From Vicinamibacteria bacterium (GTDB taxonomy: Bacteria; Acidobacteriota; Vicinamibacteria; Marinacidobacterales; Marinacidobacteraceae), in contig OY821641.1 in the NCBI GenBank assembly GCA_963555995.3, positions 1,600,001-1,664,000 of the forward strand: 64,000 bases of DNA, read 5' to 3'. Positions 17,494 through 23,584 of this stretch are shown here, in pieces (position 1 is the first letter of the stretch; each line of letters starts with the position of its first letter). The position numbers and the translations under genes are program-made. The notes beneath the pieces are model-generated. The model did not search any database, was not told where the DNA came from, and worked only from the letters and a program-made list of their open reading frames with translations.

Positions 17494-17994
17494 GTGGAGA
17501 TCGAGGTAAGCATCAAGGCGATCCTGATGGTGCCGCGGACCAGCGCCGCGGTCGTGATGCTCAAGGAGGAGTCCGGCGATCGGGAAGTCCCCATCTGGGT
17601 GGGACCCATGGAGGTCCGCGCGATCGGCCTCCAGATCGAGAACTACGAGCCGCCCCGGCCCTTCACGCACGACCTGATCCGGGAACTGCTCCGGGAGCTG
17701 GATGCCCGGGTCACCAAGGTGGTGATCCATGACGTGCAGGACAACACCTTCTACGCGCATGTCCATCTCCAGCGCAAGCGCCAGCGGCTCGCGGTGGACG
17801 CGAGGCCGAGCGACGCCATTGCCCTCGCGCTGCGGACGCGGGCGCCCATCTTCGTCCATTCCCGCGTCATCGAGCGCGGCGCCCGCCGCGCCGAGGAGCT
17901 CATGGCGGAGGACGTCGAACCACCGGAGGACAGCGAGGCGCTCGGTGACTGGCTGGAGGCGCTCGACGAGGACGACCTCGGTGACGCGCACTGA
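17494..17994 (+). CDS. Bifunctional nuclease (DUF151) family protein
   Basis: VPIWVG..E, PRPFTHDL, NTFYA, DARPSDAIALALR. RBS GAGGAG precedes GTG 17494. Confidence 0.9.
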   Translation: MEIEVSIKAILMVPRTSAAVVMLKEESGDREVPIWVGPMEVRAIGLQIENYEPPRPFTHDLIRELLRELDARVTKVVIHDVQDNTFYAHVHLQRKRQRLAVDARPSDAIALALRTRAPIFVHSRVIERGARRAEELMAEDVEPPEDSEALGDWLEALDEDDLGDAH

Positions 17995-18770
17995 TGCACG
18001 CCACCATCACCGTTGCGAACCAGAAGGGCGGGGTAGCCAAGACCACCACCGCGGTCAACCTGGCGGCGGCGTTCGCCGGCGCCGGACACCGGACGCTGCT
18101 GGTGGATGTGGATCCCCAGGCGAACGCCTCGGTGAGCGTCATCGAGCCGGACCCGTCCCGTCCCTCGATGCTGGAGGCGCTCACCGGCGAGGTCCGCTTC
18201 GCGAAGATCATCAGCCCTACCTCGGTGGAAGGCCTGTCGGTCGCCGAGGCGCGTATCTCGCTCGCGAAGCTGGAGCGGCAGCTCCTCGGCGACATTGATG
18301 CCCACTACCGGCTCCGGGACCGCCTCCAGTACGTCCGGGGGGAATTCGAGTACGTGGTGATTGATACCCCTCCCACTCTCGGGCTCATCACGGTGAACGC
18401 GTTGGTGGCGAGTGACTACCTGCTGCTGCCGCTGCCGCCCACCTACTACGCTCTGGAGGGCGCCGACGACCTGCTGGACACCCTCGAGCAGGTCCGCCGC
18501 CGCCCCAATCCCGATCTGTCGCTCCTCGGAGTGGTGGTCACGATGGCGGATCAGCGCACCCGGATCGCCCGCGACGCGATCCGCAAGATCCGGGGACACT
18601 TCGGAAAGGCCGTCTTTCGGACGCTGATCGGCCGGAACGTCCGGCTCGAAGAGAGTCCCGCCTACAAGGAGTCCATCTTCGCGTTCGCCCCCGACTCCCG
18701 GGGAGCCGAGGACTACGGACGCCTGTCTCGGGAGGTGCTTGCCCGTGTCCAAGCGAACTGGTCTCCCTGA
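17994..18770 (+). CDS. parA: ParA/Soj family ATPase
   Basis: ANQKGGVAKTTT, DVDPQAN, IDTPPTLG, NALVA, RNVRLEESP. Confidence 0.92.
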   Translation: MHATITVANQKGGVAKTTTAVNLAAAFAGAGHRTLLVDVDPQANASVSVIEPDPSRPSMLEALTGEVRFAKIISPTSVEGLSVAEARISLAKLERQLLGDIDAHYRLRDRLQYVRGEFEYVVIDTPPTLGLITVNALVASDYLLLPLPPTYYALEGADDLLDTLEQVRRRPNPDLSLLGVVVTMADQRTRIARDAIRKIRGHFGKAVFRTLIGRNVRLEESPAYKESIFAFAPDSRGAEDYGRLSREVLARVQANWSP

Positions 18771-19614
18771 AAAAGTCGCTCTGAAGCCGCGTGAGAGCCA
18801 CTACGTGGCGGGGCTCGCTCCCGAAGAGCCGCAGGTCCGGCACCGGATGATCCCGACGGCGCAGATCCATCCCAATCCCGATCAGCCGCGCCAGCGCATC
18901 GGGGCGCTGGAGCCGCTCGCCACCTCGATCCGCGACCAGGGCATCCTCCAGCCGATTCTGGTCCGCCGCCTGGGTCCCAAGGACTTCCAGATCATCGCGG
19001 GCGAGCGGCGCTATCGCGCCGCGGTACTCGCCGGGCTGCGCGAAGTGCCGTGCGTCGAACGGGAGGCCGAGGCGGGGGACGCGCTCGAGTTGGCCCTCGT
19101 GGAGAACCTGTTGCGGGACGACCTCTCCGCCTTCGAAGAGGCTGCCGCCTACGAGGGGCTCATCCGGGAGCATGGACACACCCACGACTCGCTCGCCCGC
19201 CGGGTCGGCAAGGGACGCACGTCCATCACCGAGACCCTCGCCCTCCTGAACATACCGGAGGAGATCCGGGAACTCGCCCAGGCCTCCGGGATCGTCTCCC
19301 GCCGCCAGTTGCTGCGGGTGGCCCGCGAACCGAATGCGGAAGCCATGCTGGCCGCTGTCCAGCGGCTCGCCCAGGGGATCGGGGAGCCGGCGCCCAAACG
19401 CCCGAAGGGCAGGGGAGAGCGCGCGCGGCCCTTCGTCTTCCGCTACGCCCCGAAAGACGGTCCTTTCCGTCTGCAGTTGACCTTCCGCCGCAGCGAGGTC
19501 GAAGAGGCGGACGTGGTGGAGGCGCTCCGAACCCTGCTGCGGCAGCTCGAAGAGGCGAGCGACGATGTCGGCGCGCCGACATCGGACGCAAGCGACAGCG
19601 AATCAAAGAGTTAG
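18739..19614 (+). CDS. parB: ParB/Spo0J family partition protein
   Basis: PNPDQPR, GILQPILVR, IIAGERRYRA (CTP-binding box), ALVENLLRDDLSAFEEA and an HTH. Confidence 0.92.
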   Translation: MPVSKRTGLPEKVALKPRESHYVAGLAPEEPQVRHRMIPTAQIHPNPDQPRQRIGALEPLATSIRDQGILQPILVRRLGPKDFQIIAGERRYRAAVLAGLREVPCVEREAEAGDALELALVENLLRDDLSAFEEAAAYEGLIREHGHTHDSLARRVGKGRTSITETLALLNIPEEIRELAQASGIVSRRQLLRVAREPNAEAMLAAVQRLAQGIGEPAPKRPKGRGERARPFVFRYAPKDGPFRLQLTFRRSEVEEADVVEALRTLLRQLEEASDDVGAPTSDASDSESKS

Positions 19615-21317: not shown

Positions 21318-21832
21318 GCGACCCGGCGTCGGCGATCCGGGCGCTGATGCGCCGGGCGCCGCAACTGGTGACCGTCGTGACCGCCCGTGGTCCGGACGGG
21401 CCGAGGGGAATCACCGTCAGTTCCTTCACTTCGGTGAGCCTCGACCCGCCGCTGGTGCTCGTCTCGATCATGAATTCGGCCCGGGCGCACCCCGCCATCG
21501 CCGCGGGCGCTTTCCGGGTGCACCTGCTGGCGTCCGACCAGGCCGATGTTTCCGGGCACTTCGCCAAACCCGGGCTCGACGCGAACACCCAGTTCGGAGG
21601 CCGGTTCGCCGAAGCCGTGGAGGCGGGCGGAACGGAGGATCCGCCCCGGATTCCCGGCTGCATCGGCTGGCTCCGCTGCGTGACCGCCGGGTCCCATGCC
21701 GAGGGCGACCACACGCTGTTCATCGGAAGAGTGACGGAGGGCAGGGTGGAGCGGGCCGAGGCCGCTCCCTTGCTTTACTACGACCGGGGCTATCGCGAAG
21801 TGGGAGGCGTCCCGGGTGATTCGCCGGGCTGA
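21314..21832 (+). CDS. Flavin reductase family protein (HpaC-like)
   Basis: VTVVT, GITVSSFTSVSLDPPLVLVS, GDHTLFIGRV, PLLYY..GY. Confidence 0.92.
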   Translation: MSDPASAIRALMRRAPQLVTVVTARGPDGPRGITVSSFTSVSLDPPLVLVSIMNSARAHPAIAAGAFRVHLLASDQADVSGHFAKPGLDANTQFGGRFAEAVEAGGTEDPPRIPGCIGWLRCVTAGSHAEGDHTLFIGRVTEGRVERAEAAPLLYYDRGYREVGGVPGDSPG

Positions 21833-21836
21833 TCCG

Positions 21837-22718
21837 ATGCGCATTCCGGGAGCCGCGCTGCTCTTCCTGCTGGGAGCCGGAAGTCTCGCCGGCTGTGGGG
21901 GCGGCGAGGAAGCGCCCCCGCCCGCCGAAGAACCGGCGCCGGTGGAAGAGGCCCCGCCCGCCCCGGAGCCGGAGCCGGCGAGGCCCGCCCCGCCGCCGCC
22001 CCCGCCGCCGCCGACAACCGGCGGTCTGCAGGTGGAGGGGACCGAGGGGGCGCGCGTGGTGCTGGACGGCCGGGTGCTGGGCACCGTGCCGGGCGCCTGG
22101 GAGGATCTGGACGCCGGGGAGTATCCGGTTCGGGTGGAGAAGGAGGGCTTCCACCCGCTGGAGGTGAGCATCACGATCCGGGGCGGCCGCACGCGGTCGC
22201 TGGCCGCGGAGCTCGTCGAAATGCTGGGGTCCATCACGGTGGAGAGCGACGTGGCGGGCGCGAACGTTTTCCTGAACCGGAACTTCAAGGGGAACACGCC
22301 GGTGACCATCAGCGACCTGAGCCCGGGTGAATACAGCCTGACCGTGTCGGTGGAGGGGCGCGACGTGGTGTCCCGGAAGGTCGAGGTGGGCCGGCGGCGG
22401 GTCCCGGTCCGGGTGGAGTTCGGCGACCCGGCGGCCTCGCTGGACGTCCGGGTCGCCGTGGTCCACAAACACCGCTTCGGGTCGTGCGAGGGGACGCTGG
22501 TCGCCACGCCGGAGGGGTTCGACTACCGGACCGATCACAAGGACGCCTTCCGGCTGTCGTTTGGCCAGACGGAACGGTTCGAGATCGATTACCTGCAGAA
22601 CAACCTGCGTCTCAAGGTGCGGGGCGGGCGCACCTACAACTTCGAGTCGCCGACCGAGGACCTGGACGCGCTGTTCGTGTTCCACCGCGACGTCGCCGCG
22701 TTTCGCGAGCAACGGTAA
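21837..22718 (+). CDS. PEGA-domain lipoprotein
   Basis: Lipobox LAGC, Pro-rich linker, two PEGA repeats (GARVVLDG...GEYPVRVEKEGF; GANVFLN...GNTPV...GEYSLTV). Confidence 0.8.
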   Translation: MRIPGAALLFLLGAGSLAGCGGGEEAPPPAEEPAPVEEAPPAPEPEPARPAPPPPPPPPTTGGLQVEGTEGARVVLDGRVLGTVPGAWEDLDAGEYPVRVEKEGFHPLEVSITIRGGRTRSLAAELVEMLGSITVESDVAGANVFLNRNFKGNTPVTISDLSPGEYSLTVSVEGRDVVSRKVEVGRRRVPVRVEFGDPAASLDVRVAVVHKHRFGSCEGTLVATPEGFDYRTDHKDAFRLSFGQTERFEIDYLQNNLRLKVRGGRTYNFESPTEDLDALFVFHRDVAAFREQR

Positions 22719-22734: not shown

Positions 22735-22762
22735 TCTTAACATAATCATCCTTATCGGAAGT
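22735..22762 (-). other. dif-like XerC/XerD recombination site
   Basis: Minus strand reads ACTTCCGATAA-GGATGA-TTATGTTAAGA: 11-6-11 geometry, XerD arm 9/11 identical to E. coli TTATGTTAAAT. It is an AT-rich island in an intergenic region. Confidence 0.8.
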
Positions 22763-22899
22763 CGCGCGAGCGACCCTCGATAAGGATCGAAACCGCCGTG
22801 GGCACCTCCGGAGTGCTCGCGCGCCGTCCGATCAGGGGGCCGTGCTTATCCGAAGTTGCTGCCGCAACTTCCGATAAGCGGGCCGGACGCCAGCGATTT

Positions 22900-23096
22900 G
22901 GAACGCCGGTCTCCAGACCGGCACCGCGGGCCGGAGGCCCGCGCACGTCGTTTCGCTATGGGCCGGAGAAGGCCTCACGCACGGGGAGGATCCAATCTGT
23001 CCGGATTCGCAGACGGGAAAAAGCCACCCAGCGGGACGGCGAGGCGCCGTGCGCGGCGCGGAGCGCCGCGCGTGCCGGTCTGGAGACCGGCGTTCC
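22900..23096. repeat. Inverted REP pair (REPIN-like)
   Basis: GGAACGCCGGTCTCCAGACCGGC (22900-22922) and its exact reverse complement (23074-23096). Confidence 0.85.
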
Positions 23097-23119
23097 AAGC
23101 CGTTTCCGCCGTCATTCCG

Positions 23120-23584
23120 TCAGTCGTCCGGCGACCCGAACCGCTCTTTGAGTCTGGCCGTCCGGTACCTGAAGATCCGCCGCACGTCGGGCGTGACCAG
23201 CAGCCGCTCGACGAGGGCGCCGCCCGGCGCCCGGTAGTGGACCTCGTCGGAAGCGATCACCACCGCTCCCCTGCCCGGACGCTCCTCCACCTCGAACCGG
23301 TGCTCGTGAACCCAGCTCCGGTAGGGGCCGGCCACCTGTTCGTCCACGAAGCGGTGCGGCGGCTCCCAGGCGGTGATCTCGCTGCGCCAGCGAAGCGGGA
23401 TCCCGTGGAGGCGCAGCCGATAATCGATCTGCGCGCCCCGCGACATCGGGATCTCGCCTTCGGTCAGGACCTGGAAACGGAGCCAGGGCGGGGTGAGCAC
23501 CTCCAGATTCCTGGCGCTCGAAAAGAATGCGAAGACGGTCTCCAGCGGAGCCGCCAGCGCGACGGAACATCGAAAGACTGGCAT
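23120..23584 (-). CDS. SRPBCC/START-fold protein
   Basis: VFAFFSSARNLEVLTPPWL, RWRSEIT.WEPP..FVDEQ..GPY..W.HEHRF, IFRYR. Confidence 0.88.
   Translation of the reverse strand: MPVFRCSVALAAPLETVFAFFSSARNLEVLTPPWLRFQVLTEGEIPMSRGAQIDYRLRLHGIPLRWRSEITAWEPPHRFVDEQVAGPYRSWVHEHRFEVEERPGRGAVVIASDEVHYRAPGGALVERLLVTPDVRRIFRYRTARLKERFGSPDD

Follow-up and report, generated by a model that had tools for sequence, protein, structure and literature searches.

The only chromosomal dif site of this Vicinamibacteria bacterium, at which its sister chromosomes are separated, is followed on its XerC side by a non-coding unit of ~135 bp that contains four extra XerC-like arms, and the two hairpins seen at the locus are the halves of this one unit. 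Sequence conservation in related genomes indicates that the extra arms are under purifying selection, and that three helices formed by them, for which strand-specific folds are predicted, are kept by compensatory pairing. We tentatively favor, with a little less than even confidence, a model in which the module is an attP-like, putatively folded XerC substrate that became fused to dif, is selected and mostly vertically inherited, originated from the end of a minimal IMEX and was amplified by slippage. Coordinates refer to the window, the whole stretch of 64,000 nucleotides that was analysed, unless they are prefixed with contig C1 of the genome (G000).

The dif site and the unit beside it

The site at 22735-22762 had been described in a first-pass annotation as a complete 11-6-11 dif-like site, and all of its sequences and spacings proved to be as described: it consists of an XerD arm (22735-45), a 6-bp centre (22746-51) and an XerC arm (22752-62, hereafter A0), which on the minus strand read in the order XerC arm, centre, XerD arm. 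The genome scan and the skew and KOPS checks proposed in that annotation identify it as the true chromosomal dif. It is the one full dif-like match in the 3.80-Mb chromosome when up to five arm mismatches are allowed, and the two exact copies of the XerC arm found there both lie at this locus. The cumulative GC skew reaches its maximum at C1:1,623,085, ~320 bp from dif. The most strand-skewed octamer genome-wide, GGGCAGGG (251:57, cumulative peak at 1621-1622 kb), is one that we take to be of the KOPS type, and KOPS-type octamers change strand between C1:1,621,739 and 1,623,269, around the site; dnaA lies opposite, at C1:3.47 Mb. With no other full match in the genome and with the skew and KOPS switch located here, a better dif elsewhere is ruled out. 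Two strong tyrosine recombinases of the genome type as XerC and XerD, each being the best fit and just below the family cut-off (L208, 325.6 on TIGR02224, cut-off 335.2; L209, 329.3 on TIGR02225, cut-off 329.6), and three weaker ones are also present. The XerD arm shares 9/11 bases with that of V. cholerae dif1 (Table I of PMC3089051), and a single matching dif site was found in 24/24 genomes of the family and in 33/41 of the genomes searched overall. Elsewhere on the chromosome, two giant polyketide-synthase-like frames (~19,600 and ~15,900 codons) at C1:3,320,000-3,430,000 produce an extreme local GC skew. A second parA-parB pair is present in the terminus at 17994-19614 (plus strand), 3 kb from dif, and the other ParB adjoins dnaA at C1:3.47 Mb.

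Both dif and the module lie between a convergent pair of genes that encode a PEGA-domain protein and an SRPBCC protein. The XerD-side flank is constant, as it aligns to the PEGA gene flank in all 20 family genomes tested, and in the module-free genome G019 the SRPBCC gene is reached within ~270 bp after dif. The features of the locus are as follows.

21816..22718, plus strand: PEGA-domain gene (Pfam PF08308, E 1e-26), XerD-side host flank of dif
22735..22762, minus strand: chromosomal dif, sole full match in the genome, at the GC-skew/KOPS switch and opposite dnaA
22763..22772, plus strand: loop 1, 10 nt, comprising a 3-bp stem and a tetraloop
22773..22787, plus strand: A1, inverted XerC-like arm whose 4-nt tail is complementary to the dif centre; pairs with the dif XerC arm to form hairpin H1
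22788..22815, no strand: s1, variable spacer with a 7-bp range in length and a mean pairwise identity of 44%
22816..22834, plus strand: extension (22816-23, complementary to loop 1) and inverted arm A2 (22824-34), alternative partner of the dif XerC arm in predicted helix H3
22835..22845, no strand: 11-nt centre between A2 and A3; its start resembles the dif centre and its end is GTGC
22846..22877, minus strand: hairpin H2, comprising A3 (22846-56), loop 2 (22857-66, 10 nt) and A4 (22867-77), with an invariant C:C/G:G mismatch
22878..22897, no strand: s2 (10 nt, pairs with the 11-nt centre) and eroded joint
22898..23102, no strand: inverted pair of a dispersed REP-like repeat (core 22898-22924 and 23072-23098), unrelated to the arms; truncates the array
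23120..23584, minus strand: SRPBCC/polyketide-cyclase-like gene (Pfam PF10604), XerC-side host flank

Outward from A0, the unit thus runs through loop 1, A1 with its tail, s1, the extension, A2, the 11-nt centre, A3, loop 2, A4, s2 and the joint. The inverted degenerate arm followed by GGATCG that had been noted 10 nt after the XerC arm is present; the A1 arm (22773-83) has three mismatches to the XerC arm, and GGATCG has 4/6 bases as in the dif centre. The same annotation held that this module recurs 94 bp later. The spacing of 94 bp is as stated, and the arms, the 10-nt loop and the perfect inverted arm A4 (22867-77) are all there, but they form the second half of one unit rather than the same module again. 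Nor are the two hairpins equivalent: only H1 carries a dif-centre tail, and it folds better on the plus strand, whereas H2 folds better on the minus strand. The arms named in that annotation all exist, but A2 and its 8-nt extension had been overlooked. A2 recurs as a direct repeat, A4, 43 bp further on, and in G004 and G008 both are identical to the dif XerC arm of neighbouring families. The 11-nt centre starts with GGA, GGG or GAG, and with TGA in the sole genome whose dif centre starts with TGA. In relatives with several copies, the next unit begins at the joint after half an XerC arm, and the joints retain at most the outer six bases (the outer half) of that arm.

Arm-like 11-mers are nowhere in the genome as dense as in the module, with six in 150 bp as compared to four in the runner-up. 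Two arm-loop-inverted-arm pairs exist in the chromosome, both of them here, whereas ~0.12 are expected by chance (one arm with at most one and the other with at most three mismatches, loops of 3-30 nt). The predicted fold has a z score of -4.0 on the plus strand and -4.7 on the minus strand, and 0/200 shuffles were as good on either strand. Distally, the array is cut off by the REP-like repeat, which has ~400 copies genome-wide at up to three mismatches (215 + 188) and which also ends the array in G004, G005, G006 and G013. The location between convergent genes and beside real REPs, together with a dispersed repeat of Lachnospiraceae that has very similar hairpins, could suggest that the module is a REP/BIME repeat, a terminator or an RNA structure with a chance likeness to dif arms. 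We consider this highly improbable. REP/BIME elements exist in many dispersed copies, whereas the module occupies a single locus in each of 16 genomes; the copy number refutes a REP, including the multi-copy REP unrelated to dif that had been raised as a possibility for the arm-10-arm hairpin, and the adjoining ~400-copy REP has no relation to it. The module moreover starts inside dif, and it stays with the XerC arm where a large element separates this arm from the PEGA gene. No Rfam family was found on the module at 11 loci, and the strand indicated by the G:T bias differs between helices.

Distribution, descent and copy number

With up to two mismatches allowed, the 10-nt-loop hairpin is present in 16/16 genomes of the genus, always at a single locus, and in 0/12 other genomes of the family. 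It starts inside dif in 9/16 genomes and behind the far site of a conjugative element in the other 7/16. The unit is present in one to five copies across the genus, with five in G006; G001 and G002 contain a lone H1 that is followed by foreign DNA, and no full unit. Beyond the genus, both genomes of genus g3 contain an eroded homologue of the A2-centre-A3 core that lacks H1 and in which the same A2/A3 variants recur, and 2/3 genomes of genus g4 contain hairpins with an unrelated stem sequence on the same dif arm. One of the latter, G043, contains three mutually different hairpins with half arms at their joints, and in the first of them the inverted repeat is perfect. A version with a 14-nt loop is found on the dif arm of one distant genome of the phylum. 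Across lineages, the loops on the dif arm measure 10, 11, 14, 19 nt and longer; designs with other loop lengths and stems were seen in other genera, at L257:~1500 (G043), L009 (G017), L010 (G022), L013 (G018) and L213 (G230). No extra arms were found within 260 bp of dif in G016, G019, G020, G021 and G023. An exact-pattern scan of the phylum (4-34-nt loops, a pattern that this genome's own hairpins do not fit) returned 1/401 genomes (G230), and a dif-anchored scan of the class returned 5/301, all within this family; exact-pattern scans miss degenerate copies and other XerC-arm variants. Database records with the same module include 'Candidatus Marinacidobacterium sp.' and 'Vicinamibacteria bacterium' (Acidobacteriota), and sequencing runs that match the locus include marine and sponge metagenomes, with no RNA run among those listed. 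A metagenome scan yielded 12 loci, of which one is the dif locus of this genus and the remainder are low-GC repeats or chance matches.

The dif of this genus is used by a conjugative IMEX. A GGI-like element of 30-37 kb occupies the site in 7/16 genomes (G005, G006, G007, G009, G011, G012 and G015), with both ends on one contig in four of the seven. Annotation of the element in G005 and G009 revealed genes for VirB2/3/4/9/10, a coupling protein, RepB primase, ArdC, ParA and a tyrosine recombinase. In all seven, dif is restored and the far site consists of a degenerate XerD arm, a conserved centre and an XerC arm, which is the far-site layout, with a new dif, of TLC/GGI-type IMEXs. The element pushes the module outward, such that the unit lies outside the far attachment site and 30-37 kb from dif (measured in four genomes). 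Co-transfer of the unit with the element was rejected as a rule, as the backbones of G005, G006, G011 and G012 are mostly 89-100% identical and their units differ. The element itself (L035, L220 in G005 and L222 in G009) has been exchanged recently between species, its backbone being mostly 89-100% identical versus 85-91% for the host flanks. Its first ORF (443 aa) belongs to no Pfam family and gives a weak RepC lead, and its far XerD arm is fully degenerate, so that an XafT-like activator may exist. Defence-like cargo is also seen at dif: a trio (GmrSD-N, AAA-DUF3696 and an unknown) in G001 (L031:447-3704), an AAA gene tail near dif in G018 (L048) that by eye resembles the one in G001, and MrfA-type DEAD helicases next to dif in G017 (L047) and G022 (L050). 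A 14-kb insert that splits the array in G004 was rejected as an IMEX body, as it is an IS256-family composite transposon. In G009, the array at the far end (L204) is preceded by a pair of XerC arms that are separated by 33 bp and differ in their centres, and the current dif carries a degenerate hairpin; these are traces of more than one event at this dif.

Copies within a genome resemble each other more than copies from different genomes, with identities of 0.90 (17 pairs) versus 0.72 (236 pairs; G003 excluded), and the altered inner part of the joint arm is common to the copies of one genome. On the whole, the relationships among first units mirror the host tree (Mantel rho 0.45, p 0.0055, 13 genomes). 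The dif-proximal unit is the best preserved and distal units are eroded. A 43-bp deletion between A2 and A4 that removes H2 segregates in this species, with contig depths of 43 versus 46 in run X1 and 13.5 versus 7.3 in run X4 (both from one study), and is also fixed in unit 2 of G008; this deletion between direct repeats bears the mark of slippage. Two further runs are ambiguous, as hairpin 2 lacks cover in X3 and the module contig stands at 5x flank depth in X7. The unit thus likely gains and loses copies by slippage, and the tandem copies likely arose in this way rather than by repeated phage insertions. In a few cases the units are discordant with both flanks: in G005/G012, the left unit halves are 0.99 identical versus 0.88 for SRPBCC and 0.90 for the element end, and in G011/G012, SRPBCC is 0.97 identical versus 0.73 for the left unit halves. 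These cases hint at occasional movement of units or at short-tract recombination, and ordinary recombination of short tracts could account for the G005/G012 discordance. The idea that s1 captures spacers in a CRISPR-like manner was rejected, as the spacers are concerted within genomes.

These patterns bear on the interpretation originally proposed, in which every hairpin or unit marks an integration event of its own by an eroded ssDNA IMEX (an inovirus or a satellite). The position on the XerC side, where IMEXs accumulate, and the CTX-attP-like geometry noted at the outset hold up, and the GGI-like element establishes dif as an IMEX target and integration hot spot in relatives; better preservation of the proximal unit, distal erosion and the three dissimilar hairpins of G043 also agree with serial integration. 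The cleavage position described in PMC4246890 and PMC3442271 implies that each XerC-type integration leaves behind a complete copy of the former host XerC arm at the joint, whereas the joints here keep at most its outer six bases and share their altered inner part among a genome's copies. The copies are concerted, no phage genes or cargo ORFs lie between the non-coding units, and the Zot family is found in 0/28 genomes of the family (66-95% complete). For the internal joints the interpretation is already largely refuted, and as a whole we judge it very unlikely.

Searches for a free relative of the unit were likewise negative. No free copy was found in phage records, nor in the viral contigs and plasmids that had been suggested as places to look for the arm-10nt-arm hairpin: the one exact match in viral contigs is a chance match inside a T4-like helicase gene, plasmids gave four short weak matches, and phage records gave none. 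No circular unit joint was seen in the contigs of seven runs, which cannot show absence. Contig C2 of this genome (5.2 kb) was rejected as a free element, as it has no blastn match to C1 and encodes transposase-like and housekeeping-like ORFs; it may be a stray contig from another organism. A dispersed repeat of Lachnospiraceae/Clostridia (~95-bp unit, no Rfam family) does contain hairpins whose arms are nearly the same and whose loops measure 8-9 nt; its neighbouring arms are often 6 nt apart and dif-like (L057, L060, L097, L116, L127 and many of L052-L131). Comparison of these arms with the dif arm of their hosts returned repeat ends or sites that are not clearly dif. An arm-9-arm hairpin is also present in two copies 51 kb apart on an Acidiferrales contig (L059, L110), apparently dispersed and not at dif. 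A full-text literature search, confined mostly to main texts outside subscription journals, found no report of such modules at chromosomal dif, and dif surveys may mention them. PMC7307601 and 10.1101/2022.12.17.520857 were considered as literature neighbours; the latter concerns IS elements abutting dif, which differ from the module.

Conserved arms and predicted helices

The four extra arms are 0.91 identical among 12 genomes, versus 0.67 for third codon positions of the PEGA gene and 0.44 for spacer s1, and the best-kept arms are those of H2 (A3 0.96, A4 0.92). This level of conservation argues against the earlier notion of a merely eroding scar. The alignment consists of 12 first units; G013 (indel) and G007 were left out, as were G001 and G002, which have no full unit. 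In H1 (A0:A1), 97.7% of cells are paired, three columns are compensatory, and a G:T pair is invariant in 12/12 aligned genomes. H2 (A3:A4) is 88.9% paired with two compensatory columns, and H3, in which A0 together with loop 1 pairs with the extension and A2, is 89.3% paired with six. Covariation scores are reached by 0/500 shuffles, a type of control that relatedness inflates. The helices also retain fixed, arm-specific departures from the dif arm, namely the G:T in 15/17 H1 and the C:C in 21/21 H2 copies, and loop 1 forms a G-N-N-A/G tetraloop on the plus strand in 16/17 first hairpins, whereas loop 2 forms G-N-N-A on the minus strand in 19/21 units (four out-of-register H2 copies excluded from these counts). 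Predicted energies are lower on the plus strand for H1 (11/12) and on the minus strand for H3 (11/12) and H2 (12/12). The tails of A1 and A2 track the local dif centre, being of GGA type in most of the genus, TGA in G009, GAG in g3 and GGA(A) in g4; G014 is an exception. When a circle is built in silico from one unit, its minus strand reads by eye as an arm-centre-arm dumbbell in 12/13 genomes (G013 differs), and the strand at the unit joint, which would be exchanged in this circle, does not match the dif centre. First units without arm deviation comprise 6/6 of those displaced from dif by the element and 2/7 of those at dif (Fisher p 0.021, kin not being independent).

Could such a structure have arisen without function? 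XerC nicks or stalled forks may trigger fold-back copying of the XerC arm together with a few centre bases, with the loops of mini-hairpins nucleating the copying, templated repair homogenising the arms and slippage multiplying them. In several lineages, stems of unrelated sequence and loops of various lengths are attached to the same dif arm, the tails copy the local centre, the first hairpin of G043 is a perfect inverted repeat, distal units decay and H2 is dispensable, all of which agree with a by-product of this kind. However, templated repair would erase the fixed arm-specific mismatches of H1 and H2, and H2 does not involve dif at all yet is the best-kept hairpin; the recurrence of the A2/A3 variants in g3 is also difficult to reconcile with this origin. 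We regard a functionless by-product as decidedly unlikely. As a point against the favored model, the covariation could in part stem from templated repair between inverted repeats.

Relation to known Xer systems and possible origin

The module would act like the CTX-type IMEXs without being one of them. In PMC4246890 and PMC3442271, CTX attP(+) is described as a fold of two inverted dif-like sites, one of which has a 12-bp centre (that of attP1; PMC4246890, PMC3089051), whose XerC arm contains a single mismatch and whose XerD arm contains two; integration of CTXphi needs XerC alone and is determined by the bases adjoining the XerC site. Like attP(+) of CTXphi, RS1, YpfPhi and CUS-1 and the arrays that these elements form (PMC3089051, PMC4246890, PMC3442271), the module is an inverted dif-like site on the XerC side of dif. 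Its centre is over-long (11 nt as compared to 12 bp in attP1) and its first bases match the target dif; the XerC-arm duplex contains a single mismatch and the second arm about two; the predicted double hairpin measures ~135-150 nt; and copies stand in tandem. On the minus strand, predicted H3 and H2 together place two inverted dif-like sites in one single-strand stem. In contrast to CTX, the second arms are XerC-like rather than XerD-like (by inspection, 7-8 of 11 positions of A3/A4 could pair with the dif XerD arm), and neither centre is short, the partner centre being 10 nt instead of 5-7. The joints, including the distal one, lack an intact host XerC arm, an extra hairpin is present on the opposite strand, and the module is vertically inherited and selected across the whole genus. 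It is also gene-less and, being non-coding, has no rolling-circle or morphogenesis genes, and the search for the Zot family in 28 genomes gave no sign of a helper inovirus.

Other systems resemble the module in part. GGI/TLC-type IMEXs, as described in PMC9226527 and PMC5357621, have a degenerate XerD arm with a conserved centre and XerC arm, a description that fits the VirB/VirD4, RepB-primase and ArdC element of the seven relatives; the module, unlike TLCphi/GGI, lies beyond the far site of that element and does not track its transfer. A folded-strand substrate is also used at integron attC sites (PMC3089051). The module shares with attC arrays the (predicted) folded single-strand sites, the conserved mismatches and the array beside a primary site, and differs from them in that it has no cargo ORFs, no integron integrase at the locus, and spacers that are concerted within genomes. 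In integrons, the attC cassette arrays are folded single-strand sites with conserved mismatches beside the primary site.

Accessory DNA adjoins the recombination core site in cer/psi, and in a wrapped synapse a fixed accessory-to-core spacing is expected. The module repeats recombinase-type motifs next to the core, with A2 and A4 as direct repeats, as do cer/psi and the DR1/DR2 repeats of Tn4430; it differs from these in that its arms are mostly inverted, its pairing covaries, its phasing and copy number vary, and it adjoins a chromosomal dif. At the Tn4430 IRS, the recombinase itself binds the accessory repeats DR1/DR2 beside the core (PMC2847244). By analogy, the module may be a host accessory of dif, whose extra arms bind XerC as double-stranded DNA or whose folds, once the terminus has been unwound, act as a gate on the dif XerC arm or return it to duplex form, thereby tuning dimer resolution or guarding dif against invaders. 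The single locus fused to dif, the mostly vertical descent, the selected arms, the A2/A4 direct repeats that in G004 and G008 equal the XerC arm of neighbouring families, and the separate predicted partner of each dif-arm strand are all consistent with this role. However, the distances from A0 to A2 (66-73 bp) and from dif to A3 (88-95 bp) vary by 7 bp and not by helical turns, and loop 1 covaries with a stretch 50 nt away, which implies pairing. In 7/16 genomes dif has its unit ~30-37 kb away, and the displaced first units are the best kept; G001 and G002 have H1 alone, part of the population of this species has lost H2, and five relatives have no extra arm near dif. On balance, an accessory role, which the first-pass annotation had named as its other option, seems to us rather unlikely but is a live alternative.

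In the model that we tentatively favor, the module likely descends from an attP-only (minimal) IMEX end. Whenever the terminus region becomes single-stranded, each of the two strands of the dif XerC arm would re-pair with an inverted copy supplied by the module. On the minus strand, the XerC arm and 2-3 bases of the centre would pair with A2, with one mismatch, and stack on H2, producing an arm / over-long centre / arm fold as in attP(+); on the plus strand, the XerC arm would pair with A1. XerC may bind these predicted folds. The short centre homology would then license an XerC-first, FtsK-independent exchange of a single strand with a dif, which replication would resolve, and this exchange could let a unit occasionally replace another unit at a dif, such that the module persists by its own activity. 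Occasional replacement would explain selection without an obvious host need. Tandem copies would arise by slippage between the repeated half-arm/loop/A1 stretches and not by fresh integrations. As the A3/A4 arms are XerC-like, the centres are 10-11 nt and the exchanged strand does not match, the unit would not be a canonical CTX substrate as a free circle. That no free copy, circular joint or Zot was found in the collections, contigs and genomes searched, and the overall vertical signal, count against this model, as do the designed-looking folds on both strands, which a selfish ssDNA element would not need.

A broader proposition, which we consider doubtful, is that gene-less Xer parasites or domesticated switches of ~135 nt exist that graft themselves onto dif, move by host XerC alone from one dif to another among related species, and originated in or spread through several phyla; the Lachnospiraceae repeats, with their common arm-loop-arm design, could be a form that left dif. 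When the conjugative element that occupies a common dif with such a unit delivers ssDNA, the unit would possibly ride on it.

The chromosomal dif is generally regarded as a bare 28-bp site, and IMEXs as gene-bearing phages or islands. A selected, non-coding and folded XerC-arm module that a whole genus retains would, if true, count as the smallest known IMEX or else as the first cis-acting accessory at a chromosomal dif. In either case, its three covarying helices, with their predicted strand bias and conserved mismatches, would provide exact substrates for XerC action on folded DNA outside Vibrio.
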